Positions 37,386 to 48,064 of a DNA stretch of 64,000 nt are shown piece after piece. Each line of letters starts with the position of its first letter. Positions within the stretch are counted from its first letter, which is position 1. The notes beneath the pieces are model-generated. The model searched no databases. It saw only the letters and a list, made by a program, of their open reading frames with translations, and was not told the DNA's origin. A program made the translations under genes and the position numbers. The stretch comes from Candidatus Caenarcanales bacterium (lineage in GTDB: Bacteria > Cyanobacteriota > Vampirovibrionia > 2-02-FULL-35-15), in NCBI GenBank assembly GCA_020050435.1, contig JAGVKQ010000019.1, positions 33,644 to 97,643 of the forward strand. Reading direction: 5' to 3'.

Positions 37386-38570
37386 TTAAGAGTTATTTAG
37401 TTTTAATGCTTTTGCAAGAGCAGGAATGGTAGTTCCTTGTACCACCATAGATATAAGAACAACGAAAAAGACTACATTAAAAATCATTTCTGATTTTGGT
37501 ACATGGGCTAATAATGGAAAAGTTGCCAGTATTATTGGGACTGCACCACGTAGTCCTAGCCAGGAAATAAGGATTTTTTCTTTAAAACTTAGTTTTGTGA
37601 AAATTAAGCTTGCAAAAACACTAATAGGACGAGCAATCAAAGCAAGAAATATAGATGCAAGTATGCCTTTATCCATTACGTGAACTAAGTGTGATGGATA
37701 AACTAAGAGTCCAAGTGTAAAAAACATTATTATTTGCATTAACCATATAAGTCCATCATGAAAGTTCATTATTTCAATTTTGTTTTGAATTATGGATTTA
37801 CTAAGCATTATGCCAAGAATATAAACCGCTAAAAACCCACTACCATGAAAAAAAGTTGTTATACCATAGGTAAACAGAACAAATGAAATAGAAAGAACTG
37901 GATACAGTCCTTCATACTCAAGGTTTATAGAATTTAGAATTGATACTGCTAGCATCCCCATGCATAAGCCCATTGCTGTTCCGATAACAAACTGGCTAAA
38001 GAAAAAGCCTATAAACTCAGCATAGCCAGATAGTCTATTTGTAACTAAGCTTGTCAAAGCTATAGTCATAAAAACAGCCATAGGGTCATTTATTCCTGAC
38101 TCCAGCTCAACCAATGATAAAAGTTTATGATTAATGGCAAGTTTTTTTTCTTTTATAAGTGAAAAAACTGCAGCTGGATCTGTGGGTGAAATAATTGCAC
38201 CTAGTAGAAGCCCTTCAAATAAAGTAAAGCCAAGTAAATTTTTTGAAAGTATACAAATTAATACTGCAGAAAAAACTACACCTACAGTGGAAAGTGAAAT
38301 ACCTTCCCATATAATAGCTTTTGTTCGTTTCCATTTTGAACTTAATCCACTTGAAAATAAAATAAATATCAATGCAATAATTCCAAGAAATTGTGCTAAT
38401 CCAGCATCATTAAAATAAATACCTCCAGGTCCGTCTGATCCCGCCAGCATTCCAATAATTAAAAAAAGTAAAAGAGCTGGAATGTTAAGTTTTGAAGAAG
38501 CTTTGCTGGAAAATACACTTAGCATTAAAAAAACTGATGAAATTAAAATTATTTGTTCGGTTTCAAGCAT
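37386..38570 (-). CDS. K+/H+ antiporter, NhaP2/CvrA-like (membrane domain only)
   Basis: GMLAGSDGPGGIYF, TDPAAVFS, LESGINDPMA, GLRGAVPIILA; no TrkA-C tail. Confidence 0.88.
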   Translation of the reverse strand: MLETEQIILISSVFLMLSVFSSKASSKLNIPALLLFLIIGMLAGSDGPGGIYFNDAGLAQFLGIIALIFILFSSGLSSKWKRTKAIIWEGISLSTVGVVFSAVLICILSKNLLGFTLFEGLLLGAIISPTDPAAVFSLIKEKKLAINHKLLSLVELESGINDPMAVFMTIALTSLVTNRLSGYAEFIGFFFSQFVIGTAMGLCMGMLAVSILNSINLEYEGLYPVLSISFVLFTYGITTFFHGSGFLAVYILGIMLSKSIIQNKIEIMNFHDGLIWLMQIIMFFTLGLLVYPSHLVHVMDKGILASIFLALIARPISVFASLIFTKLSFKEKILISWLGLRGAVPIILATFPLLAHVPKSEMIFNVVFFVVLISMVVQGTTIPALAKALKLNNS

Positions 38571-38573
38571 AGC
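38523..38573. repeat. 51-bp direct repeat, copy 1 (5' end of antiporter gene)
   Basis: CATTAAAAAAACTGATGAAATTAAAATTATTTGTTCGGTTTCAAGCATAGC identical to 46144-46194. Confidence 0.95.
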
Positions 38574-39082
38574 TTTAATTTTACAGTACTCTTTTTAATT
38601 TTTTTTGAATTCAGGAGTTCTTTACAAAGTAATAATCCATTTAATATTTCACTAGGAGTAGGGGGATTGCCTGGGATATAAATATCAACCGGTAAAAAAT
38701 CATCTACTTTTCCTAAGCAAGCATAACTTTTCTCATATATAGAACCATTGCAAGCCCCATCTCCAATAGCTATAACTATTTTGGGAGAAGGCATTGCATT
38801 GTAAGTTTTTTCCATTGCAATTTTTAAATGTCTTGTTACGGGGCCACTTACAGTTAAAACATCTGCATGTCTTGGAGAGGCGGTAAAATCAATTCCAAAT
38901 TGTGTGAGATCATAAATCGGGTTAGACAAAGCTAATAACTCAGCTTCTTCTGCATTACAAGACCCAGTATCTAAATGACGTATAAGCAATGATTTACTTA
39001 GAGCATGTTTAGTATTTTTATCAAGCTTTTTAATCCTAGATAATTCAGTTCTGATGATTTCAGTATTTAACATTTTTAACAT
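38549..39082 (-). CDS. HyfI/NuoB-like small subunit with atypical Fe-S ligands
   Basis: IRHLDTGSCNAEE, ASPRHADVL.VSGPVT, IAIGDGAC, VDIYIPGNPP. Confidence 0.85.
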   Translation of the reverse strand: MLKMLNTEIIRTELSRIKKLDKNTKHALSKSLLIRHLDTGSCNAEEAELLALSNPIYDLTQFGIDFTASPRHADVLTVSGPVTRHLKIAMEKTYNAMPSPKIVIAIGDGACNGSIYEKSYACLGKVDDFLPVDIYIPGNPPTPSEILNGLLLCKELLNSKKIKKSTVKLKLCLKPNK

Positions 39083-39094
39083 TCCCCCCCCCTC

Positions 39095-40672
39095 TTATCT
39101 GTCAACGCATGCATAACAAAGATTAAAACTTTTATTAACTAGTGGACTATCAGGAACTATGTTTCTTCCTTTTGTTGCTTGGATTACCCCTCTCCAATTC
39201 ATATATGATGCACTTCTTACATGCCACCTTGAAATTTTATTTTTCTTATCTAAAATCAAACAGTGAATTAAAGAGCCTTTTGCTGATTCTACTGCTCCGA
39301 TTCCAGGTTCTAGCATAGATGAAAATAGTTCTGGGATTTCTTCTTTTATTTTTCCTGTAGGTAGTTTATCTATAATTTTTCGAATAAAATCAAAAATTGA
39401 ATAAATATCTTTAACTCTAACCTTAGTTCTAGCTAATGCATCTCCTTCCGTTTCAATATTGATTTCTGGAGTGAAATCATGGTAACCTGCATATTTGAAA
39501 TCTCTTCTTAAATCAATATCTATTCCTGAAGCTCGTGCTGCTGGTCCCACTATTCCAAATTTCTTTGCTTGAATAAAGCTTAACTCTCCTGTAGTTTCAA
39601 GACGATCAAGAAGTGTATCAGAATCGATAATGATTTTTTCTAATGATTTGAATTCTTTTTTTAAGTTTTGTAATTCGTCTTTTAAAGATTTAAACTCATC
39701 ATCATTAATATCTCTTTTTAAACCACCAACAGTATTTAATCCTCTGAAAAATCTATGATTTGTAAGATTGAAAGTGATTTGCATAGCTTTTTCTCTAAAG
39801 CTAGCTGCTTGCATGGAAGCTATAGCAAAACCACTAGCAGAACATATAGCAGACAAGTCAGCCAGATGGCTATTTAATCTTTCTAGTTCTAAGCAAATAG
39901 TTCTTATATATGTTGCTCTTTTAGGAATATTTATTTTACTTAGACTTTCTACAGCCTGACAGTATGCCGTAGAATGCGAATAAGAACACATTCCACACAC
40001 ATGTTCTGCCAGTATAAGCCCTTCTTCTATGGTTTTTCCTTCTGCACTTTTTTCAATACCTTTATGTGTATAGAAAAGCTGAGCATTAAAATCAAGTATT
40101 TGTTCACCAATAGTGCAAAACCTTAAATGTCCTGGCTCTATTATTCCTGCATGGATTGGTCCTACTGCTACTTGATGCATTCCTTCAGCATGAGGCTGTG
40201 TGAACTGATGAGGGACTTCTGAGATTTCAATTTCTGTATTTAACTTAAAATCTTTTCGCATAGGGAAGTGTTTTCCATGAGGAAAGTCTCCATGCAGAAC
40301 TAGTGGTAGCAAATCTACTCCTTCAGCAACTATTCCAAACATATCATGAATCTCACGCTCAAACCATTCTGCCGCTGGAATTAACTTACTGATGGTGGGA
40401 TATGAGGGTTTTGTCTCATCTAAACAAACTTTAAATGTAAGTAAAGAAGCTGTATTTAAAATTAGAAAAATTAAATGCAGTTTATATTTCTTATTTAATG
40501 ATCTTTCATCTATGGCAAACATTGTTAGAAATGATACTTTTTCTTTCAATAAAACTTCAATGGAATCTTGTAAATCTTCTTTTTGAATGTTACACAATAA
40601 ATGATTGGTGTTGATGGTGCTTTCATCAAGGTTACATTTTTTTAATACAGATATTATGTTTGATTTATTCAT
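39095..40672 (-). CDS. HyfG/HycE-like large subunit (NuoC+NuoD-like fusion) of group 4 hydrogenase / Ehr-type complex
   Basis: FEREIHDMFG, VGPIHAGIIEPGH, EHVCGMCSYSH, ELERL, NKSFNLCYACVDR at C-terminus. Confidence 0.9.
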   Translation of the reverse strand: MNKSNIISVLKKCNLDESTINTNHLLCNIQKEDLQDSIEVLLKEKVSFLTMFAIDERSLNKKYKLHLIFLILNTASLLTFKVCLDETKPSYPTISKLIPAAEWFEREIHDMFGIVAEGVDLLPLVLHGDFPHGKHFPMRKDFKLNTEIEISEVPHQFTQPHAEGMHQVAVGPIHAGIIEPGHLRFCTIGEQILDFNAQLFYTHKGIEKSAEGKTIEEGLILAEHVCGMCSYSHSTAYCQAVESLSKINIPKRATYIRTICLELERLNSHLADLSAICSASGFAIASMQAASFREKAMQITFNLTNHRFFRGLNTVGGLKRDINDDEFKSLKDELQNLKKEFKSLEKIIIDSDTLLDRLETTGELSFIQAKKFGIVGPAARASGIDIDLRRDFKYAGYHDFTPEINIETEGDALARTKVRVKDIYSIFDFIRKIIDKLPTGKIKEEIPELFSSMLEPGIGAVESAKGSLIHCLILDKKNKISRWHVRSASYMNWRGVIQATKGRNIVPDSPLVNKSFNLCYACVDR

Positions 40673-42150
40673 AATATTCCTTTTCCATGAATAATTTCTA
40701 CGGATCTATTTAATAATTTAAACAAGGGTGCTGGTATCCAGACACTTAATAATGTAATGATAAACAGTGGTATTACTAATGCTAAAACTCCTAATTTGCT
40801 TACTTCTTCTCTAAGATTATTCTTTTCTTCAGTGCTGTTTCCTATAGTCATATTCATAGTTTGGTACATTATTGCACCAAAAATAATAAGTGAAAATAAT
40901 ATAAATAATGAGCTAATAACCCAATGCTTTTCAAGTATTCCAGCTCTGATTATATAAAACTCACTTAAGAAAACTGAAAAAGGTGGTGATCCCATTAAAG
41001 CAAGTGCTCCGATTAAAAATATTGTTCCACTAAATGGCATTATATTTATGGCAGATTTGATTTTACTTATATCTTTTGTTTGAAATTTTAATGAGAGGTT
41101 TCCTGCTGTAAAGAACATTAAAGTTTTTGTGATTGCATGATTAAACATGTGGAATACTGCTCCGAATATAGACAGTGGACTTCCTATTCCTAATCCAGTC
41201 ACAATTATTCCTATGTGTTCAAGGCTGCTATATGCTAATAAACGTTTGATCTGATTTTGTGTCATTATAAATGGAACTGATAGTGCAATAGAAAACATTC
41301 CAAAAAACAGTAACATGTTATTGGTAAATGCTGCACCGATAGATTCATTAGCAATAATAGTAAATCTAATAATGCTGTAAAGACTGCACTTTAAAAGAAC
41401 TCCGGAAAGTAATGCACTGACTGGTGTAGGTGCTTCACTGTAAGCATCTGGTAACCATGAATGCATAGGAGCAAGACCTACTTTTGTTCCATAGCCGATT
41501 AGTATAAATGCAAAAGCTAACTTTATTATATTGGGATTAAATTTCTTTGATATAGAAAGTAAATAATCCCAGTTTAAACTTAAAGACTCAACTCCTCCAG
41601 AGTGAATTGCAGCATAGAAGCATAGAATGATTCCTATCATTGCAAATGCAATTCCAACACTACAAAGTATTATATATTTCCAGGCAGCTTCAATGGAAGT
41701 GCTCTTATTGTAGTACCCTACTAGGAAAGCAGAAATCAGTGTAATTACCTCTATTCCAACCCAGACAAGTCCTATGTTATTAGAAATTACAACTGTTAGC
41801 ATTGTGAGCACAAAAATATTCAGTAAAAAATAGAATTTTTTCAATTTCCATAAAGGGAAAGAATATTCCTCATTACTTTTAATCATATAATCGGCTGAAT
41901 ACAAAGAAACAAGCAAGCTAACAGTGCCAATTATTAAAATTAGTAATCCACTGAAAGCATCTATATAAACCAGATTGTTGAAAGATTTAATTACGCCTAG
42001 TTTAATTACGTTATTTAATAATTTAATTACAACTAAAAGTAAACACAAAGATCCCGATATCTGAATAGGAGCAAACTGTTTTTCATTTTTAGGCAATAAG
42101 CAAAGAATCGCAGTAATGAAAGGAATTAGTATAAGTAAAATTATTTCCAT
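40669..42150 (-). CDS. hyfF: HyfF-like antiporter-like membrane subunit
   Basis: EAAWKY, GYGTKVGLAPMHSWLPDAYSEAP, KRLLAYSSLEH. Confidence 0.85.
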   Translation of the reverse strand: MEIILLILIPFITAILCLLPKNEKQFAPIQISGSLCLLLVVIKLLNNVIKLGVIKSFNNLVYIDAFSGLLILIIGTVSLLVSLYSADYMIKSNEEYSFPLWKLKKFYFLLNIFVLTMLTVVISNNIGLVWVGIEVITLISAFLVGYYNKSTSIEAAWKYIILCSVGIAFAMIGIILCFYAAIHSGGVESLSLNWDYLLSISKKFNPNIIKLAFAFILIGYGTKVGLAPMHSWLPDAYSEAPTPVSALLSGVLLKCSLYSIIRFTIIANESIGAAFTNNMLLFFGMFSIALSVPFIMTQNQIKRLLAYSSLEHIGIIVTGLGIGSPLSIFGAVFHMFNHAITKTLMFFTAGNLSLKFQTKDISKIKSAINIMPFSGTIFLIGALALMGSPPFSVFLSEFYIIRAGILEKHWVISSLFILFSLIIFGAIMYQTMNMTIGNSTEEKNNLREEVSKLGVLALVIPLFIITLLSVWIPAPLFKLLNRSVEIIHGKGIL

Positions 42151-42152
42151 TT

Positions 42153-42824
42153 TTATCCTTTTAATTTACTTAATTTGCTTACATCTATGGAGTCGAATGA
42201 TTGTTTTATTCTAAGTGTCCAGACTCCCATAATTAGTACTCCTATAAATAAATCTAGAGAAATTCCCATTTCAACTACAAAAGGCATTCCAAATACTGTG
42301 TCTAATGTAAGGGCGAAAATCCCATTTTCCATTACATACAAGCCAATAATTTGTGTGAGAGCTTTTTTTCTACTTATCATTATTAATAAGCCAATTAATA
42401 TAATGGATATTGCAGCATTAAATAGTCCTGGGTAATATGCTATCCTTCCAAAATTTTGTGTCATTGATAAGCCGTAAACAAATGCAATTAATGCAGAGGC
42501 AATTAATACTGTAGTTGAAGGACTTATTATCGGTACAACCTCTTTGTTTGCCTGACTTTTATCAATTACAAAATTCAAAGCAAGTGGTATTACAATGCAT
42601 TTTCCTAAAAGAGTTATTATTGCTATTCGCAGAGTTTCTGGATTATTAATTGAAAATCCTATTATCAGGGTTATTATTACCAGGCATGAAGATTGAAGTA
42701 AATAAAATTTAACTATAGATTTTAGTCTATTACTTCCTGTAATTAAAATGCTCATTAAAAGTAAAACTACAGTAAAGTAACTGATTATTGGAGTTGTAAA
42801 TTCTTGTGTTAGAAAGTTATTCAT
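42153..42824 (-). CDS. hyfE: HyfE-like membrane subunit
   Basis: SRKKALTQIIGLYVMENGI, PFVVEMG..LD. Confidence 0.85.
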   Translation of the reverse strand: MNNFLTQEFTTPIISYFTVVLLLMSILITGSNRLKSIVKFYLLQSSCLVIITLIIGFSINNPETLRIAIITLLGKCIVIPLALNFVIDKSQANKEVVPIISPSTTVLIASALIAFVYGLSMTQNFGRIAYYPGLFNAAISIILIGLLIMISRKKALTQIIGLYVMENGIFALTLDTVFGMPFVVEMGISLDLFIGVLIMGVWTLRIKQSFDSIDVSKLSKLKG

Positions 42825-43792
42825 GGCATTGAAACCCTTCCTAATTCTTGAATAACCAGAATTAATGCTAGTACTGAAATTGCAAAAGAAGTTACAAGTA
42901 TGTCTTTCACTCTAAACAATCTGACCTTTGCAATAACAGTTTCACCTAGAGTAATAATAATTGAAATAATAAGAATTTTTAAAATATAAAATGCTAATCC
43001 AGTACTTATGCTAATTAAAGTAAATTTGTTTATAATTCCCCAAGGAAAAATTAAATTACAAATTAAAGAAATTATTATTAATTGCTTTAACCAATTAGCC
43101 CAAACCATTAACCCAAGTAATTTTCCGGAGTACTCTAATAACATTCCTTCATGAATCATAGTAAGTTCATAGTGAGTTTCCTGATTGTCAAATGGAATCC
43201 TTCCTATTTCAGCAATAGAAATTATAAACAATGCAAATATGGCAAGAACATAGCTAATGGAAGGAAAAGTTAAATCATGTTTTACAAGTGAGGTTATTAT
43301 AGTAGGAATTTGCGTTGAGTTAGATAGTAAACATAAAACAATGAGAGAAAGAAGCATAACTGGCTCAATTAAAACAGAAAGCATCATTTCTCTACTGCTA
43401 GCCATTCCACAAAACCCACTTCCTGGTTCCATTGCTGCAAGAGACATAAAAAATCTTCCTAAACTAAGCAAGTAAACAAAAAGAATTACTCCGCCAAACA
43501 TACCAATACTCTCAATTTCAAAAAACATTGGTACAAATAGTCCTGCAGTAAGAGTTGAAGAAAAAACAATTAAAGGAGTTGTAGAGAAAATCCATGATGT
43601 TTGATCTGATATAACTGTTTCCTTGTGAAAGTATTTAGTTAAATCATAGTATCCTTGAAACAGTGGAATCCCTTTTCTTCCCTGTAATAAACCCTTCATT
43701 TTTTTAATTACAGAATTTACCATTGGAGAAAGTAAAAGCAGTCCAATTATTTGACTTAATATTAGTATTATATTTTTTGTTTCAATATTCAT
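42821..43792 (-). CDS. hyfC: HyfC/HycD (NuoH-like) membrane subunit
   Basis: QGRKG.P..Q.YYDL.K, SSREM....L.EP, EIGRIPFDN.ETH.ELTMIHE.M.LEYSG; ATGA overlap with hyfB stop. Confidence 0.88.
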   Translation of the reverse strand: MNIETKNIILILSQIIGLLLLSPMVNSVIKKMKGLLQGRKGIPLFQGYYDLTKYFHKETVISDQTSWIFSTTPLIVFSSTLTAGLFVPMFFEIESIGMFGGVILFVYLLSLGRFFMSLAAMEPGSGFCGMASSREMMLSVLIEPVMLLSLIVLCLLSNSTQIPTIITSLVKHDLTFPSISYVLAIFALFIISIAEIGRIPFDNQETHYELTMIHEGMLLEYSGKLLGLMVWANWLKQLIIISLICNLIFPWGIINKFTLISISTGLAFYILKILIISIIITLGETVIAKVRLFRVKDILVTSFAISVLALILVIQELGRVSMP

Positions 43793-45753
43793 AAGCTTAC
43801 CCAAATAATAGAAATTACTAAAGCAATAAAAATATAAGTCAAGTAAACCTGCACAACTCCTGACTGAACGGTTTTGACTTTGTAGGAGAATTTATTTAAG
43901 ACATCATAAATGGGAAGATAAATCCACTTGTAGTAAAAATCTTTTGGGATATGTAGTCCTGAAAAAATGACCTCTATGGGTTGAATGAAGCCAGTAGGAG
44001 TGTATTCAAACTCAGCCTTAGGACTTATTCCACAACTCCATGTTTCATCTTTTCTTGTAGTGGTTTTATTATTAACTAACTTAGGGATAATAAATCCAAG
44101 AAAAGAGAAACTTAAAAGTAGCAAAAGAATTAGAGTTGGTGAATAATGTCCTGAAACAGTATTATTTATGTGTAATATTTGATTATTAGAAAATGCCGCT
44201 GAGTTAACTTGACTTAAATTAATTAAAGTAGAAGCAGCTGGACAAATCAATGAAATTGTAAATAATGGAAACAGTCCTATTAATAAACATAGACTTGAAG
44301 ATATAAATAAACTGAATATCATAGACTTGGAAGATTCTTGAGCATACTCTACTAAATGCGTTCTAGGCATTGCCATAAATATTCCTGAAAATAATTTTAT
44401 AAATGTTGCAATGCATATAGCACCAGTTAAACCTAATAATGAAGCGGAGATTATTCCTATAGTTTTTATAACATTTGAAGAAGTGTTAAACAGAGCCAGT
44501 AAATTCTGAAATATAAGCCATTCACTTGCAAAGCCATTTAGTGGAGGAAATGCACAGATAGCCAGGACTCCGATCAAGAAAAACAAAGATGTTTTTGGCA
44601 TCTTTTTTATTAATCCGCCTAATTTGGAAAAACTTCTTGTATGAGTTGTTGAGATTACTGAACCTGAAGCCATAAAAAGTAATGATTTAAAAATAGAGTG
44701 ATTTAGGGTGTGAAATAAGCTTATAACTAAAGAAATAGCTGCAAGGTCATAGAGTCTTAAGCTGTAAAAAATAATTCCAGTGCTGATGGGAATGAAAATT
44801 ATGCCAATATTTTCTATGCTGCTATATGCAAGAAGTCTTTTTATATCATTTTCCTGAGAAGCGTAGATAATTCCAACCAATGCTGTAGATACCGCTACTA
44901 AAAGTAAACAAACTCCCCACCAATATGAATTAGGGTTTAAAAACTCAAAAGTTACACGTAATAATCCATATATTGCTGTTTTAATCATAACTCCAGACAT
45001 TAGGGCAGATATATGGCTAGGTGCTGCTGGATGTGCTTCTGGAAGCCAGATGTGTAATGGAATTAATCCTGCTTTAGTTCCAAAACCAATCAATGCAAAA
45101 ATAAACAATAAAAGATTTAAATTATCAGGCATTTTTTTATAAACGCCATGGAATGATTCAAATGAAAAGCTTCCAGAATAGTTTGCCATTATTAAAAATA
45201 AAAATAATAAAAAAGCTGATCCAATATGCGTCATTAAGAGATAGATAAAACCTGCAGATCTTGATTCATCACTAGAAGTGTTAGAAATAATTAGCCCATA
45301 GGATATTAAGGTCATTGATTCCCAGAAGATTAAAAACAGCAGTGCATCATTAGCACTTACCAAAAGAATCATTGATAATAAAAACAAATTGTATAAAAAT
45401 ACTAAAAGAGGTATTGATGTTTTTGTAGATTCTGATTTTAAATAGCCAATTGAAAAAATTGAAACAGAAATTGAAATTAATGAGATTAAGAAAATAAAAA
45501 ATGCTGAAAATGGGTCTACTGAAAGAATGGGAGTTAATAATGGAATATTTATAGGTAATTCTATTTTAAAACTGTTCTTGTGGAGTAAAACATTGACTGA
45601 ACTAAGAAGGCTGAAAAGTGCAGCAATTATTGCGAAAATACTAGATGTATATATGCCAAGCTTATTTGAATACAGTCCTAATACGAGTGAAAATAATGCC
45701 CCGATAATAAAAAACAATATAGAGAATTCAAGCAGTAAAATATTATTTTCCAT
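43789..45753 (-). CDS. hyfB: HyfB-like antiporter-like membrane subunit
   Basis: FWESM, GFGTKAGLIPLHIWLPEAHPAAPSHISALMSG, KRLLAYSSIEN, PPLNGFASEW, TWSCG. Confidence 0.88.
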   Translation of the reverse strand: MENNILLLEFSILFFIIGALFSLVLGLYSNKLGIYTSSIFAIIAALFSLLSSVNVLLHKNSFKIELPINIPLLTPILSVDPFSAFFIFLISLISISVSIFSIGYLKSESTKTSIPLLVFLYNLFLLSMILLVSANDALLFLIFWESMTLISYGLIISNTSSDESRSAGFIYLLMTHIGSAFLLFLFLIMANYSGSFSFESFHGVYKKMPDNLNLLLFIFALIGFGTKAGLIPLHIWLPEAHPAAPSHISALMSGVMIKTAIYGLLRVTFEFLNPNSYWWGVCLLLVAVSTALVGIIYASQENDIKRLLAYSSIENIGIIFIPISTGIIFYSLRLYDLAAISLVISLFHTLNHSIFKSLLFMASGSVISTTHTRSFSKLGGLIKKMPKTSLFFLIGVLAICAFPPLNGFASEWLIFQNLLALFNTSSNVIKTIGIISASLLGLTGAICIATFIKLFSGIFMAMPRTHLVEYAQESSKSMIFSLFISSSLCLLIGLFPLFTISLICPAASTLINLSQVNSAAFSNNQILHINNTVSGHYSPTLILLLLLSFSFLGFIIPKLVNNKTTTRKDETWSCGISPKAEFEYTPTGFIQPIEVIFSGLHIPKDFYYKWIYLPIYDVLNKFSYKVKTVQSGVVQVYLTYIFIALVISIIWVSL

Positions 45754-45759
45754 TTATTT

Positions 45760-46083
45760 TTATCTCTTCGATAGTCCCTTTAATAAATTTTGTATATCTA
45801 TCAATTGTTCATTAAATATTTTTTTAGTTTCATCAAGTAGTTTAAAAATAATAGAATGTCTAATAGAGTAGTAAATATTATTTCCAGATTTTCTAGTGAT
45901 TACTATATTATTATTTCTAAGGATTGCTAGCTGTTGAGAAACGTTTGGAGCTTCAATACCCAGTCTTTTTTTTAATTCATTTACCGTAAGCTCTCCATTG
46001 CGGAGTTCATCTATTATTTGAATCCTAATTGGGTTGGCAAGTGCTTTAAAAAATGTTGCTTTAAATTCTCTTAGTCTCTTCAT
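45760..46083 (-). CDS. ArsR/SmtB-family transcriptional regulator (no cysteines)
   Basis: FFKALANPIRIQII..L..GE.TV.EL...LG.E..NVSQQLAILR; ATG 46083 preferred over GTG 46128. Confidence 0.88.
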   Translation of the reverse strand: MKRLREFKATFFKALANPIRIQIIDELRNGELTVNELKKRLGIEAPNVSQQLAILRNNNIVITRKSGNNIYYSIRHSIIFKLLDETKKIFNEQLIDIQNLLKGLSKR

Positions 46084-46110
46084 TTTTTTTGTTCTGTTTG
46101 TTCGTTTAGT

Positions 46111-46130
46111 ATATGCGAATATTCGCACAT
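46111..46130. promoter_or_regulatory. Palindromic operator, probable ArsR autoregulatory site
   Basis: ATATGCGAATATTCGCACAT (perfect 14-bp core TGCGAATATTCGCA) abutting minus-strand -10 TATACT. Confidence 0.7.
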
Positions 46131-46143
46131 AGCTATTTTAACA

Positions 46144-46194
46144 CATTAAAAAAACTGATGAAATTAAAATTATTTGTTCGGTTTCAAGCATAGC
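46144..46194. repeat. 51-bp direct repeat, copy 2 (orphan 5' end of antiporter; reads MLETEQIILISSVFLMC* on minus strand, 46138-46191)
   Basis: Identical to 38523-38573; extends to 59/61 including the -10 TAAAAT. Confidence 0.95.
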
Positions 46195-46217
46195 CATAAT
46201 TTTATATTATGATATGG

Positions 46218-46949
46218 CTAGTTCTGCTTCCTTTCTAATCTAATATTTGCTTCTTGTTCTTTACCATTAGCATTTGCAGAATTAGAGTTTCTTTGATTAA
46301 TAGGGAGTTTAGAAATAACTAAATTGTAAAAGGGCAGACTTCTTACCCACTCATTAATTGCAAACTGTTCAACTGTACGGCAACCTACACCTACAATTGG
46401 ATTTTCTGTATCAATAAATAAAAGTCTGCATAGTGTTCTACTTAAAAATTCATCTGATAGGGTTTTATAATCAAATTGGCTAGCCTTTAAAACTCCTATT
46501 CCAATAAGACCTATTCTTGAGCCTAATCTAGCGAACATATTTAAAAACCCTGTTCCCATTCTTTTAAACTTATCTATTTGTCTGTTTGGATCGACTATGG
46601 CTGTACCCATAGTAATCTCTAATGATTTTCTAATTCCAGTAAGAAACATATTTAAATTAATTTCTTTTATTTGCTTCTGGAAAAGGTGTAAAAGCGAACG
46701 AGAAGAAAGATATCTGACATTTTCAGTTATAAAACGAAAGCCTATTCTATTTGCGTAGTTTTCCATATTTGTCTCATAGTATCTACCAGCACCCCTAATA
46801 AAAGAATCAAGAATACTAGGAAGTCCCATGATGGGAGTGTTATTAGCATTTTCCATAGAAATCTTTTGCAGATCATTTTTACCAGAAGATGGCAATGTCC
46901 TAATAATAGGTTGAGGAATAAAATATGAATATATAGGATTTATAGGCAT
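46218..46949 (-). CDS. Hypothetical protein downstream of a poly-Cys leader
   Basis: 243-aa ORF, no motif recognised. Confidence 0.65.
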   Translation of the reverse strand: MPINPIYSYFIPQPIIRTLPSSGKNDLQKISMENANNTPIMGLPSILDSFIRGAGRYYETNMENYANRIGFRFITENVRYLSSRSLLHLFQKQIKEINLNMFLTGIRKSLEITMGTAIVDPNRQIDKFKRMGTGFLNMFARLGSRIGLIGIGVLKASQFDYKTLSDEFLSRTLCRLLFIDTENPIVGVGCRTVEQFAINEWVRSLPFYNLVISKLPINQRNSNSANANGKEQEANIRLERKQN

Positions 46950-47010
46950 TTAAAATAAAAAAAAGCAAAAAAAATCATAATAAAAAAATTCTTTCTAGAC
47001 CCAAAACAAC

Positions 47011-47038
47011 AAAAAAGTTAGTCTAAGGTCAGACTAAC
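47011..47038 (-). terminator. Attenuator-like terminator hairpin overlapping the leader stop codon
   Basis: Minus strand GTTAGTCT-GACCTT-AGACTAAC-TTTTTT. Confidence 0.75.
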
Positions 47039-47096
47039 AACAACAGCTTTTACAGCAGCATTGAATTGTTATTTGGTTTGTGAAAGAAATAATCAT
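47034..47096 (-). CDS. Putative cysteine-sensing leader peptide MIISFTNQITIQCCCKSCCC (absent from ORF track)
   Basis: 6 Cys codons in the last 8 codons; stop inside terminator 5' arm. Confidence 0.7.
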   Translation of the reverse strand: MIISFTNQITIQCCCKSCCC

Positions 47097-47221
47097 TATG
47101 AAAGTTCTTGCTTAACCTTGTTTTCTTAACTTATAGGCTTTTTATTATATACTAATCTTCAATTTACAATAATAAAAAAATTATAAAAATAGATTTTATA
47201 ATAAAAAGCTAGAGTAATAGT

Positions 47222-48064
47222 ATGGAGTTTGAGCATAAAATAGTTAAAACTGAAATTGGTGATGTGGAGTATACAGACATTGGATCAGGTCCAGTTATTG
47301 TTCTTTCACATGGTACTCCTGGAGGCTCAGATGTCGGTCCATTGATTTTCAGCGAAATAATCTCTCATGATTTCAGACTGATTACCCCATCAAGACCTGG
47401 ATATTTAAAAACTAGCCTTGATCTGGGAAAGACACCAGAAGAACAAGCAAAAGTTTTTTACCATTTTATTGAAGCATTAAATATTGAAAAAGCTTCATTC
47501 CTTGCATGGTCTGGTGGTGGACCTCTTGCTTTGAATTTTGCTATAAACTATCCAGAAAAAATTTCATCTTTAGTCATGCTATCCACGGTAACAAAAAAAC
47601 TTGTTGAAAAAAGTATGCTCTTCAAACTTTTTGTTAAAAATGAATTTTTGCCAAGAACTTTGTTAAGTGCAAAAAAATCATTACCTTTTTTAAATAATTT
47701 AATTTGTAAGGAGTTGGGTGCTAATCCAAAGATTGCATTGAGTGATGAGAAGAAATTAAAAATTTTAGATGCACTTATAGCATCAACAATGCCTTCAAAC
47801 TTGAGATTCCATGGGTATGCAAATGATGCAGAACAATTTGCAAAGCTAGAAGATATGGAATTTCATAAAGTCCTTTGTCCTACAATGATTTTATTTGATG
47901 AAAAAGATACCCAAGTCCATGTGCATCATGGTGATCATTTATCTGAAAAAATACCACACAGTGTTTACCTGAAATTTACAAAAGGCGGACATACTCCTAT
48001 GCTTGATGAGGAGTCAATTGTAGTAATAGAACATATGGTTAAATTTTTTAAAGAACATGTTTAA
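47222..48064 (+). CDS. Alpha/beta hydrolase
   Basis: HGTPGG, SRPGY, AWSGGG nucleophile elbow, D..V, GGH. Confidence 0.88.
   Translation: MEFEHKIVKTEIGDVEYTDIGSGPVIVLSHGTPGGSDVGPLIFSEIISHDFRLITPSRPGYLKTSLDLGKTPEEQAKVFYHFIEALNIEKASFLAWSGGGPLALNFAINYPEKISSLVMLSTVTKKLVEKSMLFKLFVKNEFLPRTLLSAKKSLPFLNNLICKELGANPKIALSDEKKLKILDALIASTMPSNLRFHGYANDAEQFAKLEDMEFHKVLCPTMILFDEKDTQVHVHHGDHLSEKIPHSVYLKFTKGGHTPMLDEESIVVIEHMVKFFKEHV

Follow-up and report, generated by a model that had tools for sequence, protein, structure and literature searches.

What is a 20-codon open reading frame (ORF), six of whose last eight codons specify cysteine (Cys), doing immediately upstream of the gene for a 243-amino-acid (243-aa) orphan protein? 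The question is raised by a 64,000-nucleotide (nt) stretch of DNA from Candidatus Caenarcanales bacterium (contig JAGVKQ010000019.1 of assembly GCA_020050435.1, positions 33,644 to 97,643), hereafter the window, in whose numbering positions are given unless a contig or locus is named. We suggest, tentatively and with rather less than even confidence, that this ORF is a translated, cis-acting Cys-codon leader with read-through into the downstream gene when Cys-tRNA is charged; that it is a cis-acting Cys-codon leader of either polarity we hold to be evenly balanced between right and wrong. The features of the leader, together with their conservation in a second genus, seem unlikely to be due to chance.

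A short cysteine-codon ORF that ends inside a hairpin

The ORF lies in a 272-nt intergenic region between a divergent alpha/beta-hydrolase gene (47222..48064, plus strand) and the gene for the 243-aa protein (46949..46218, minus strand), and the features of this leader, in the order in which they would be transcribed, are as follows.

47144..47149, minus strand: TATAAT, a -10-like element, inferred to belong to the promoter from its position and its conservation in the second genus (genome G006)
47097..47137, minus strand: putative 5' untranslated region (UTR) of about 41 nt, carrying the 5' strands of helices P1 (47111..47105) and P1b (47101..47099)
47034..47096, minus strand: the leader ORF, with an ATG start, 20 codons (MIISFTNQITIQCCCKSCCC) and TAG, from the ORF listing and the sequence
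47017..47038, minus strand: hairpin P3, GTTAGTCTGACCTTAGACTAAC, nine pairs of which three are G-C, loop of four, from the terminator scan
47011..47016, minus strand: tract of six uridines (U6) immediately 3' of P3 (scan tail TTTTTTGTTG), absent in G006
46965..47005, minus strand: 3' strands of the nested helices, P2b (47005..47002), P2 (46996..46992), P1b (46977..46975) and P1 (46971..46965)
46947..46962, minus strand: TTTTTTATTTTAAATG, a U/A-rich tract together with the main gene's start codon, free of pairing in the consensus fold
46218..46949, minus strand: gene for the 243-aa orphan protein, presumed to be the controlled gene; an all-helical bundle according to AlphaFold2, of a protein family confined to this family of Melainabacteria

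The poly-Cys ORF was first proposed in a preliminary description made from the sequence alone, which placed it on the minus strand at 47096-47034; it is present there, as are the further U tracts and the ATG at 46949 noted at the same time. Its codons are ATG ATT ATT TCT TTC ACA AAC CAA ATA ACA ATT CAA TGC TGC TGT AAA AGC TGT TGT TGT TAG, with a first Cys triplet at codons 13-15 (47060..47052), a second at codons 18-20 (47045..47037) and the stop at 47036..47034, such that the final eight codons read CCC, K, S, CCC. A 5' UTR is implied, since the conserved TATAAT sits 47 nt ahead of the ATG of the short ORF here and 42 nt ahead of it in G006; the transcript start was taken as 7 nt past this element.

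In its own genome (G000; 2.49 Mb, 33% G+C, 30 contigs, 96.6% complete) such an ORF is rare. Among the 3653 short ORFs of 1299 upstream regions, five combine a CC pair with at least three Cys, and the leader ORF is the sole one of the five with six, the other four having three or four; the search for Cys-codon ORFs elsewhere in the genome, suggested at the outset, thus yielded further Cys-rich upstream ORFs but none comparable in Cys number. Likewise, the leader ORF is one of only ten, out of 60,265 ORFs of 8-60 aa, that have at least six Cys and avoid overlap with ORFs of at least 100 aa. An origin from a repeat or mobile element was rejected, as the leader is single-copy and matches only itself in the genome (every other match being 29 nt or shorter). 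One short ORF encoding MTCCSPC (G000:C5:69090) was judged unrelated; it sits in a GC-rich palindromic element before a methyltransferase gene.

The stop codon of the leader ORF is buried in hairpin P3 (-10.3 kcal/mol on its own), whose 5' arm (47038..47030) begins at the second base of Cys codon 20 and includes TAG. The original observation that the last Cys codon and the stop form the 5' arm of a hairpin followed by U6 therefore stands, with nine pairs by the terminator scan in place of the eight first counted. P3 and U6 together look like an intrinsic terminator, one of four terminator-like sites found in 3 kb against 1.4 in shuffled sequence. In a contig of a near relative from a public sequencing run (about 93% identical), two changes fall in the 3' arm of P3 among the differences listed, and both keep their pairs as G-U.

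P3 is itself nested in a larger fold. The RNAalifold consensus of the G000 and G006 leaders is a single nested structure of 31 pairs, six of them compensatory and none broken, in which P1 and P1b connect the 5' UTR to the region 18-30 nt ahead of the main ATG, and P2 and P2b connect codons 3-7 of the ORF (5' strands 47089..47085 and 47080..47077) to the segment past P3. Each leader alone is more stable than expected from its dinucleotide composition, at -49.4 kcal/mol (z -4.74) in G000 and -39.3 kcal/mol (z -3.77) in G006, with none of 200 dinucleotide shuffles as stable in either case. P3 is retained in G006 with one compensatory pair, where the hairpin is longer (13 bp) and spans the last four Cys codons.

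Homologs of the 243-aa protein are encoded by ten of the 11 other genomes in its family and by none of 29 genomes sampled from other families of the class. The closest ortholog belongs to G006, with 57-62% identity between the proteins, and it too is preceded by a short ORF (MLIFSKIKVTYQNCCKCCCC, then TAG) of 20 codons, 71 nt upstream (84 nt in G000), with a hairpin on its stop codon. Six Cys fall in the final seven codons of that ORF, and the two share the C-terminal pattern [C/N]CCK[S/C]CCC-TAG. The neighbours of the G006 ortholog are an unknown 415-aa gene upstream and a convergent sulfotransferase gene downstream; because the other neighbours differ between the two genomes, the conserved unit is the short ORF plus the 243-aa gene.

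The pattern of change between the two leaders is informative. Their alignment has no gap in the 63 columns of the ORF and 18 gap columns in the other 128, these forming six indels, none a multiple of three. Codons 1-12 agree at 22 of 36 nt, with seven amino-acid changes and one synonymous change, codons 13-20 and the stop at 24 of 27; the last 16 nt up to and including the main ATG are identical, and TTTTTTATTTTAAATG is the same in G006 at 16 of 18 columns, the remaining two being gaps. The variable first half, fixed Cys block and kept frame suggest a leader peptide of which the regulatory codons are the only part that counts. The RNA itself appears to be constrained as well, given that the Cys block is identical at synonymous sites and shares the rare TAG stop (TAG makes up 23% of the stops of long ORFs in G000, and TGT 75% of Cys codons). 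Two sequences are too few to separate constraint on coding from constraint on RNA.

Proposed mechanism and competing explanations

How might such a leader act? We hypothesize that the leader RNA, about 190 nt in length, would fold as a single extended nested hairpin with the short ORF at its tip, and that the two Cys-codon triplets of the ORF would tie the progress of the ribosome to charged tRNA-Cys. The output in G000 would be the P3-U6 intrinsic terminator: a ribosome at codons 18-20 or at TAG would cover the 5' arm of P3, and RNA polymerase would read into the 243-aa gene; with no ribosome, or with one held at the first Cys triplet, P3 would form and transcription would stop. Because read-through would need a ribosome that has passed the first Cys triplet, the gene would be ON when cysteine is plentiful, a polarity that we consider plausible. 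We infer that the ORF is translated, that its translation is coupled to RNA polymerase, that the polarity is as given and that the switch bears on cysteine physiology.

The geometry is compatible with these steps. With the ribosome modelled as a footprint from -12 to +14 around the P site, A-site codons 2-15 leave P3 intact and codons 18-21 abolish it. Intrinsic termination is the mode to be expected, because no Rho scored above cut-off in this 96.6%-complete genome (best 50.9 bits against 509.45). A precedent comes from the E. coli terminator tR2, for which one study reports that shifting the stop codon, at first 28 bp before the terminator, to 5 bp before it cut termination from about 90% to below 10%, and that uncoupling translation restored it (PMC4824070). 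The proposal, already made from the sequence, that a ribosome at a stop codon inside the stem would block termination is thus favoured by this precedent and by the footprint model, although the lack of a terminator-like site in the G006 leader and the efficiency of terminators early in a coding region, both taken up below, speak against it.

The preliminary description also saw an antiterminator in the downstream sequence GGGTCTAG (47002..46995), and this part did not hold. When the 5' arm of P3 is masked (A-site codons 8, 13, 18 and 19), the minimum-energy fold does show this sequence paired with the 3' arm, but the sequence is transcribed after the U tract and is therefore unable to decide termination. 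Upstream, the nascent RNA folded as far as the U tract contains the terminator and an adjacent, non-overlapping helix, with no competitor under ribosome masks at codons 13-15. Because there is no upstream competing hairpin and GGGTCTAG is made only after the U tract, the element is not a trp-type attenuator. A 'cysteine-plenty' switch of reversed polarity, without an antiterminator, with the arrival of the ribosome at a buried stop as the ON signal, with the Cys triplets gating that arrival and with a peptide that might also act in trans, strikes us as somewhat unlikely.

A number of observations weigh against read-through on charged Cys-tRNA. The case is built on two genomes and on sequence comparison. 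The leader ORF has no Shine-Dalgarno motif, a motif found before only 32% of the genes of this genome against a background of 11%, and the nascent RNA offers neither a competing upstream antiterminator nor an obvious pause hairpin. According to the E. coli study, termination is efficient at terminators that lie no more than 100 bp into a coding region (PMC4824070); P3 lies 60-85 nt into the leader ORF, and the first ribosome may arrive too late to block it. Read-through would likewise follow if the ribosome stalled at the second Cys triplet, which makes the polarity ambiguous. The scan that detected P3-U6 gave no terminator-like site in the G006 leader, whose hairpin is not followed by a U tract, so that termination is not what the two leaders have conserved. 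The consensus structure is paired in 62 of 62 cells, against 33-55% paired and zero to one compensatory change in slid-partner controls, a lenient control because the structure was derived from the same two sequences. Finally, sequence, profile and structure searches reveal no recognisable tie of the 243-aa protein to cysteine or sulfur.

The distribution of the ORF is a further difficulty of the same kind. Among four distinct orthologs with readable upstream DNA only two carry a Cys-tract ORF: conservation upstream of homologs, which had been named as a check, extends to G006, but no Cys-rich short ORF precedes the orthologs in G001 (53% identity) or at the identical metagenome loci L015/L016 (53%). 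The CCKxCCC-stop pattern occurs in three of 401 genomes of the class (G000, G006 and G385; none in the reversed control). Among the 12 family genomes, a covariance model trained on the two leaders recovered these two alone, and its best match in 17 other loci had an E-value of 0.53. In a FastTree phylogeny rooted on a paralog, the orthologs lacking the ORF branch first, and G000 and G006 fall on opposite sides of the remaining crown group, a topology that fits a single gain of the short ORF within the crown group; its supports are moderate (0.70-0.86), and the other crown-group members are known as proteins only. Among the public sequencing runs listed, no RNA run contains the leader, and three DNA runs share 5-6% of its words.

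Four other explanations have to be set against the leader hypothesis. The strongest, which we consider doubtful, is that the ORF is a stand-alone gene for a 20-residue Cys-rich micropeptide, metal- or redox-binding or the precursor of a modified product, which partners the 243-aa protein, a leaky terminator or stabilising hairpin setting the ratio of the two products. The segment CCK[S/C]CCC is indeed kept residue for residue, its Lys included, and the peptide, where present, is always found with the 243-aa gene, yet basal orthologs and paralogs of the 243-aa protein have no such peptide, such that the protein does not need it, and the N-terminal 12 residues vary freely (seven of 12 differ). 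In precursor-peptide operons, such as those of pqqA and the lantibiotic precursors, a small gene, a hairpin and then partner genes are the usual layout; the present locus has a similar layout, but no known peptide-modifying enzyme family is encoded nearby. As for a metallothionein standing by itself, the leader ORF has no Shine-Dalgarno motif and its peptide no family-model match, the 20-aa peptides of G000 and G006 finding nothing in Pfam at E-values up to 10, although a metal-binding peptide outside any family model would escape this comparison. A pairing of metal sensor and metallothionein was rejected, because the ArsR-like regulator encoded downstream contains no Cys and has a palindrome of its own, and neither ArsR nor Hyf genes lie near the G006 ortholog.

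The genome does encode other small Cys-rich proteins, which lends the micropeptide some support. We observe five intergenic ORFs of 41-51 aa whose N-terminus resembles a signal or membrane segment and whose tail is rich in CxC (e.g. ...GNCPCGTSCACSPCNCGK), all outside the window, at G000:C8:127400-128086(-), C14:119407-119535(-), C27:224705-224830(+) and C12:278120-278272(-). Three of them were compared with Pfam: two gave weak metallothionein matches (19.1 and 22 bits against a cut-off of 23, one at C8 and one at C27) and the third none. Both genes at C8 have a strong Shine-Dalgarno motif, and the one terminator read there starts about 14 nt past the stop codon; the leader ORF is unlike these genuine small Cys-rich genes because it has no such motif and its hairpin sits on the stop codon. 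The C8 pair flanks a gene with a CCPGC metal-binding-like motif, and the C8 genes are probably a metal-handling cluster.

A second explanation, which we judge unlikely but still a serious rival, borrows the mycobacterial mode of control: the nested helices would close the landing site of ribosomes on the main gene, and stalled or queued ribosomes would open the leader, such that the gene would be ON when cysteine is scarce and control would be translational or structural. What the two genera share is the nested helices P1, P2 and P3, not the U tract, and the 3' strand of P1 lies 18-24 nt before the main ATG. In Mycobacterium smegmatis the mechanism is proven to be translational, with stalled ribosomes blocking a duplex that keeps the next gene's ribosome-binding site hidden, according to Canestrari et al. 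(10.1101/834739). The 60-nt ORF has room for two ribosomes, and with one of them stalled at codon 13, queueing would leave the start of the ORF and the P2 and P1b strands covered. Against this, the Cys tract pairs locally in both species and not with the start region of the main gene, the consensus fold leaves the final 17 nt ahead of the main ATG unpaired, the main gene offers the helices no Shine-Dalgarno motif to conceal, and its product has no recognisable tie to cysteine metabolism; moreover, behind a single stalled ribosome the outer helices re-form in the model.

Third, what is conserved might be a non-coding RNA with structure, either a leader or a small RNA, whose functional parts are the GU-rich block GCUGUUGUUGUUAGUC and the nested helices (e.g. 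as a protein-binding or stability element), the ORF being incidental and untranslated. We find this improbable. By a rough estimate from the two sequences, however, that an open in-frame ORF should happen to overlie a conserved GU-rich RNA motif is not very improbable, a point that counts against a translated leader. The identity of the Cys block at synonymous positions and in its TAG, the strong fold signal in both leaders and the missing Shine-Dalgarno motif are all as a purely RNA element would have them, and the paralogs of the 243-aa gene bear a different, strongly conserved non-coding block upstream, with no conserved ORF, as if this family tended to elaborate its leaders. Such an element would not explain why the ORF has no indel where the rest of the leader has six, why the ATG is in frame with the one of three frames that gives Cys codons, or why there are exactly 20 codons in both species despite a divergent first half. 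Neither the window nor any of 10 related loci reaches the gathering score of an Rfam family, and 46850-47300 gives only chance-level rows (E-values of at least 5.5).

Last, a chance meeting of a Cys-rich short ORF in a T/G-rich stretch with an unrelated hairpin is very improbable and close to refuted by the G006 ortholog: the degenerate CCKxCCC-stop pattern is common (at least 120 stretches across the genomes of all species scanned, mostly out of frame in Ala-rich coding sequence) and CCC-stop occurs 5-30 times per genome in the 12 family genomes against 2-13 times in the reversed control, but only one of 3653 upstream short ORFs in G000 is of this kind, and the 20-codon ORF, its hairpin and its position recur in a second genus in which the flanking leader has diverged.

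Of the 120 loci in the all-species scan, most have no in-frame start; the family of the window is not among the matches listed, and the scan is uninformative on distribution. Among the matches listed, ORFs of 54-55 aa ending in CCCKCCCC-stop look real and are conserved in three genomes of Chryseolinea (L038, L076 and L105), and a 37-aa ORF with the same ending looks real in a member of the Rickettsiales (L097). Three CCC-stop clusters that resembled tandem small genes were rejected as out-of-frame matches in repeat proteins.

Relation to known leaders

How does a translated Cys-codon leader at this locus compare with leaders already described? The trp, his, leu and thr attenuators are built of overlapping 1:2, 2:3 and 3:4 hairpins and are ON at starvation. 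The G000 leader resembles these classical attenuators in that its leader ORF is short and repeats the codons of a single amino acid; a terminator-like site comes next in the 5' leader of G000, though not in that of G006. It differs from them in that the nascent-RNA fold has no competing antiterminator hairpin, the stop lies inside the stem, the predicted polarity is reversed and the target is not a recognised biosynthetic gene, the 243-aa protein having no recognised match that would connect it with the sensed amino acid.

At pyrBI and pyrE of E. coli, the terminator stem of the leader is kept from forming by a ribosome that follows RNA polymerase closely, and polymerase pausing that depends on uridine triphosphate (UTP) is the signal at pyrBI. 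The present ORF similarly ends in a terminator stem without an antiterminator, whereas the Cys codons here would slow the ribosome, in place of UTP-dependent pausing of the polymerase. In the tnaC leader, which precedes the tryptophanase operon of E. coli, free tryptophan is sensed within the ribosome, and Rho is blocked. The likeness to tnaC lies in the proposed ON state with a plentiful amino acid by way of a ribosome at the stop codon, and the differences are that no Rho was found here and that sensing would be by tRNA charging.

The closest comparison is with the actinobacteria. As first suggested, poly-Cys upstream ORF attenuators are known in mycobacteria: polycysteine leaderless short ORFs are proven attenuators at Ms5788A and five further loci, according to Canestrari et al. 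(10.1101/834739). Like these, the present ORF is short and placed early in the transcript, has runs of at least three Cys codons near its end and is embedded in RNA pairing, and it reaches the threshold of that study, a minimum of two or three Cys codons in a row; sensing there takes place through ribosomes that pause on Cys codons, and the same principle is proposed here. Earlier, Cys leader peptides with Cys runs near the stop codon were predicted before cys/cbs operons in Mycobacterium, Propionibacterium and Bifidobacterium (Seliverstov et al., 2005; PMC1262725), and a 2026 paper cites work on actinobacterial Cys leaders for M. tuberculosis (PMC13236596). The position of the Cys run near the stop is common to those leaders and ours. 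Most of the leaders of the 2005 study have no classical terminator/antiterminator pair, all of them lack a conserved hairpin, and its authors suggested Rho, in contrast to the conserved stop-codon hairpin and the lack of a Rho above cut-off here.

We rate the element as sharing its probable sensing principle with the actinobacterial Cys leaders and as differing from them in five respects. First, mycobacterial ORFs are leaderless, whereas a 5' UTR is implied here. Second, a terminator-like hairpin holds the stop codon, unlike in the mycobacterial ORFs. Third, pairing of the Cys tract in mycobacteria engages the Shine-Dalgarno region of the gene that follows, whereas the folds of the present leader keep the tract in local pairs or inside P3, and no ribosome-binding site is engaged. 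Fourth, the target is an orphan protein, where the mycobacterial leaders and those predicted in 2005 control cysteine-metabolism operons and genes. Fifth, the phyla differ, Melainabacteria as against Actinobacteria.

In the literature searched, Cys-codon leader ORFs appear only in Actinobacteria, controlling cysteine metabolism; none was found outside this phylum (subscription-only papers and supplements lay outside the search), nor was anything found there on small Cys-rich proteins of Melainabacteria. A conserved case in Melainabacteria would therefore broaden Cys leaders to an orphan gene family, a stop inside a hairpin and a leader without an antiterminator. If borne out, it would mean that ribosome-based cysteine sensing arose independently elsewhere, possibly with opposite polarity, and it would provide a testable clue to the function of an unannotated protein family of 54 clusters at 50% identity. 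If the switch does respond to plentiful cysteine, it would sit in the non-photosynthetic sister lineage of cyanobacteria, and its Arg-rich helical orphan would be a first handle on the response to cysteine surplus.

The 243-aa protein and its neighbours

What, then, would the leader control? The 243-aa protein had been called unrecognisable and is so by every comparison made: it has no match in Pfam, NCBIfam, PHROG or PADLOC, and the only name attached to its homologs is 'Candidatus Melainabacteria bacterium'. A profile search of 1.84 billion cluster representatives gave the 54 relatives (as clusters at 50% identity) mentioned above. AlphaFold2, from 60 sequences, predicts an all-helical bundle with confidence (predicted local distance difference test, pLDDT, 85.8; predicted template modelling score, pTM, 0.78). 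A Foldseek comparison of this model with PDB, one of the checks proposed at the start, returned nothing at E-values of 0.001 or below and leaves the protein unrecognised; the best VIA-align hit (SipA, Z 8.3 over 83 residues) is inside the stated noise for helical bundles, a profile search of PDB reached an E-value of 0.55 at best, and the best score in a protein atlas (0.79) is under the lead threshold. Residues invariant in the family are mostly Arg (R52, R56, R72, R79, R141 and R175), plus E59, G134 and Q195.

At L016:1445-3403, upstream of an ortholog that lacks the Cys ORF, a cysteine-dioxygenase-type cupin (28.7 bits, cut-off 23) is fused to an FAD/NAD(P)-binding domain, one faint hint of a link between the 243-aa family and cysteine. 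The TAG stop of the 243-aa gene itself also lies within a hairpin, TAGCCATA-N14-TATGGCTA (46191-46220, minus strand), without a U tract, echoing the layout of the leader.

Paralogs of the 243-aa gene, present in nearly every genome of the family, share a conserved block of about 90 nt located about 215 to 125 nt before the ATG, ..ATTTAAT..TTTA.CTTAA..ATTAAAAT.TTTAATCTT.....TTAT.TTT..., which is followed by a variable G+C-rich hairpin and a CTGAT..ATCAG hairpin. The loci compared were L004-L010 and L012-L014 (L013 being G000:C3:36138-39629), the upstream region of L011 having been left out. The block contains no conserved short ORF and has no match in Rfam, and is a candidate for a new cis-regulatory element or promoter architecture.

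On the other side of the 243-aa gene, 3' of it and on the same strand, lie a regulator gene and a hydrogenase cassette.

45760..46128, minus strand: ArsR-like gene (ArsR/SmtB-type regulator, NF033788), listed with a GTG start
37386-45753, minus strand: Hyf-type group 4 [NiFe] hydrogenase set (HyfB, C, E, F, a fused 30/49-kDa large subunit and a small subunit), which looks complete, followed by a Na+/H+ exchanger

The hydrogenase-like cassette was said to come next on the same strand, and it does so after the ArsR-like gene, but its linkage to the 243-aa gene is not conserved beside the G006 ortholog. A perfect 14-bp palindrome, TGCGAATATTCGCA, precedes the ArsR-like gene at 46114-46127 and is unique in the window (0.16 expected). 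Because it overlaps the listed GTG start, the real start of the gene is probably an ATG 15 codons further in, and the palindrome is likely to be the autoregulated operator of an ArsR-Hyf unit. Matches of the regulator to NCBIfam models other than the general ArsR/SmtB one are all under cut-off, BigR being the next best. We take the ArsR-like and hydrogenase genes to be a unit separate from the short ORF and the 243-aa gene. A metagenome contig (L018:2859-3629) has Hyf F/G/I-like genes followed directly by an 85-aa C-terminal remnant (67% identical) of the 243-aa gene, a second and differently arranged hydrogenase-cluster neighbourhood of this gene family.

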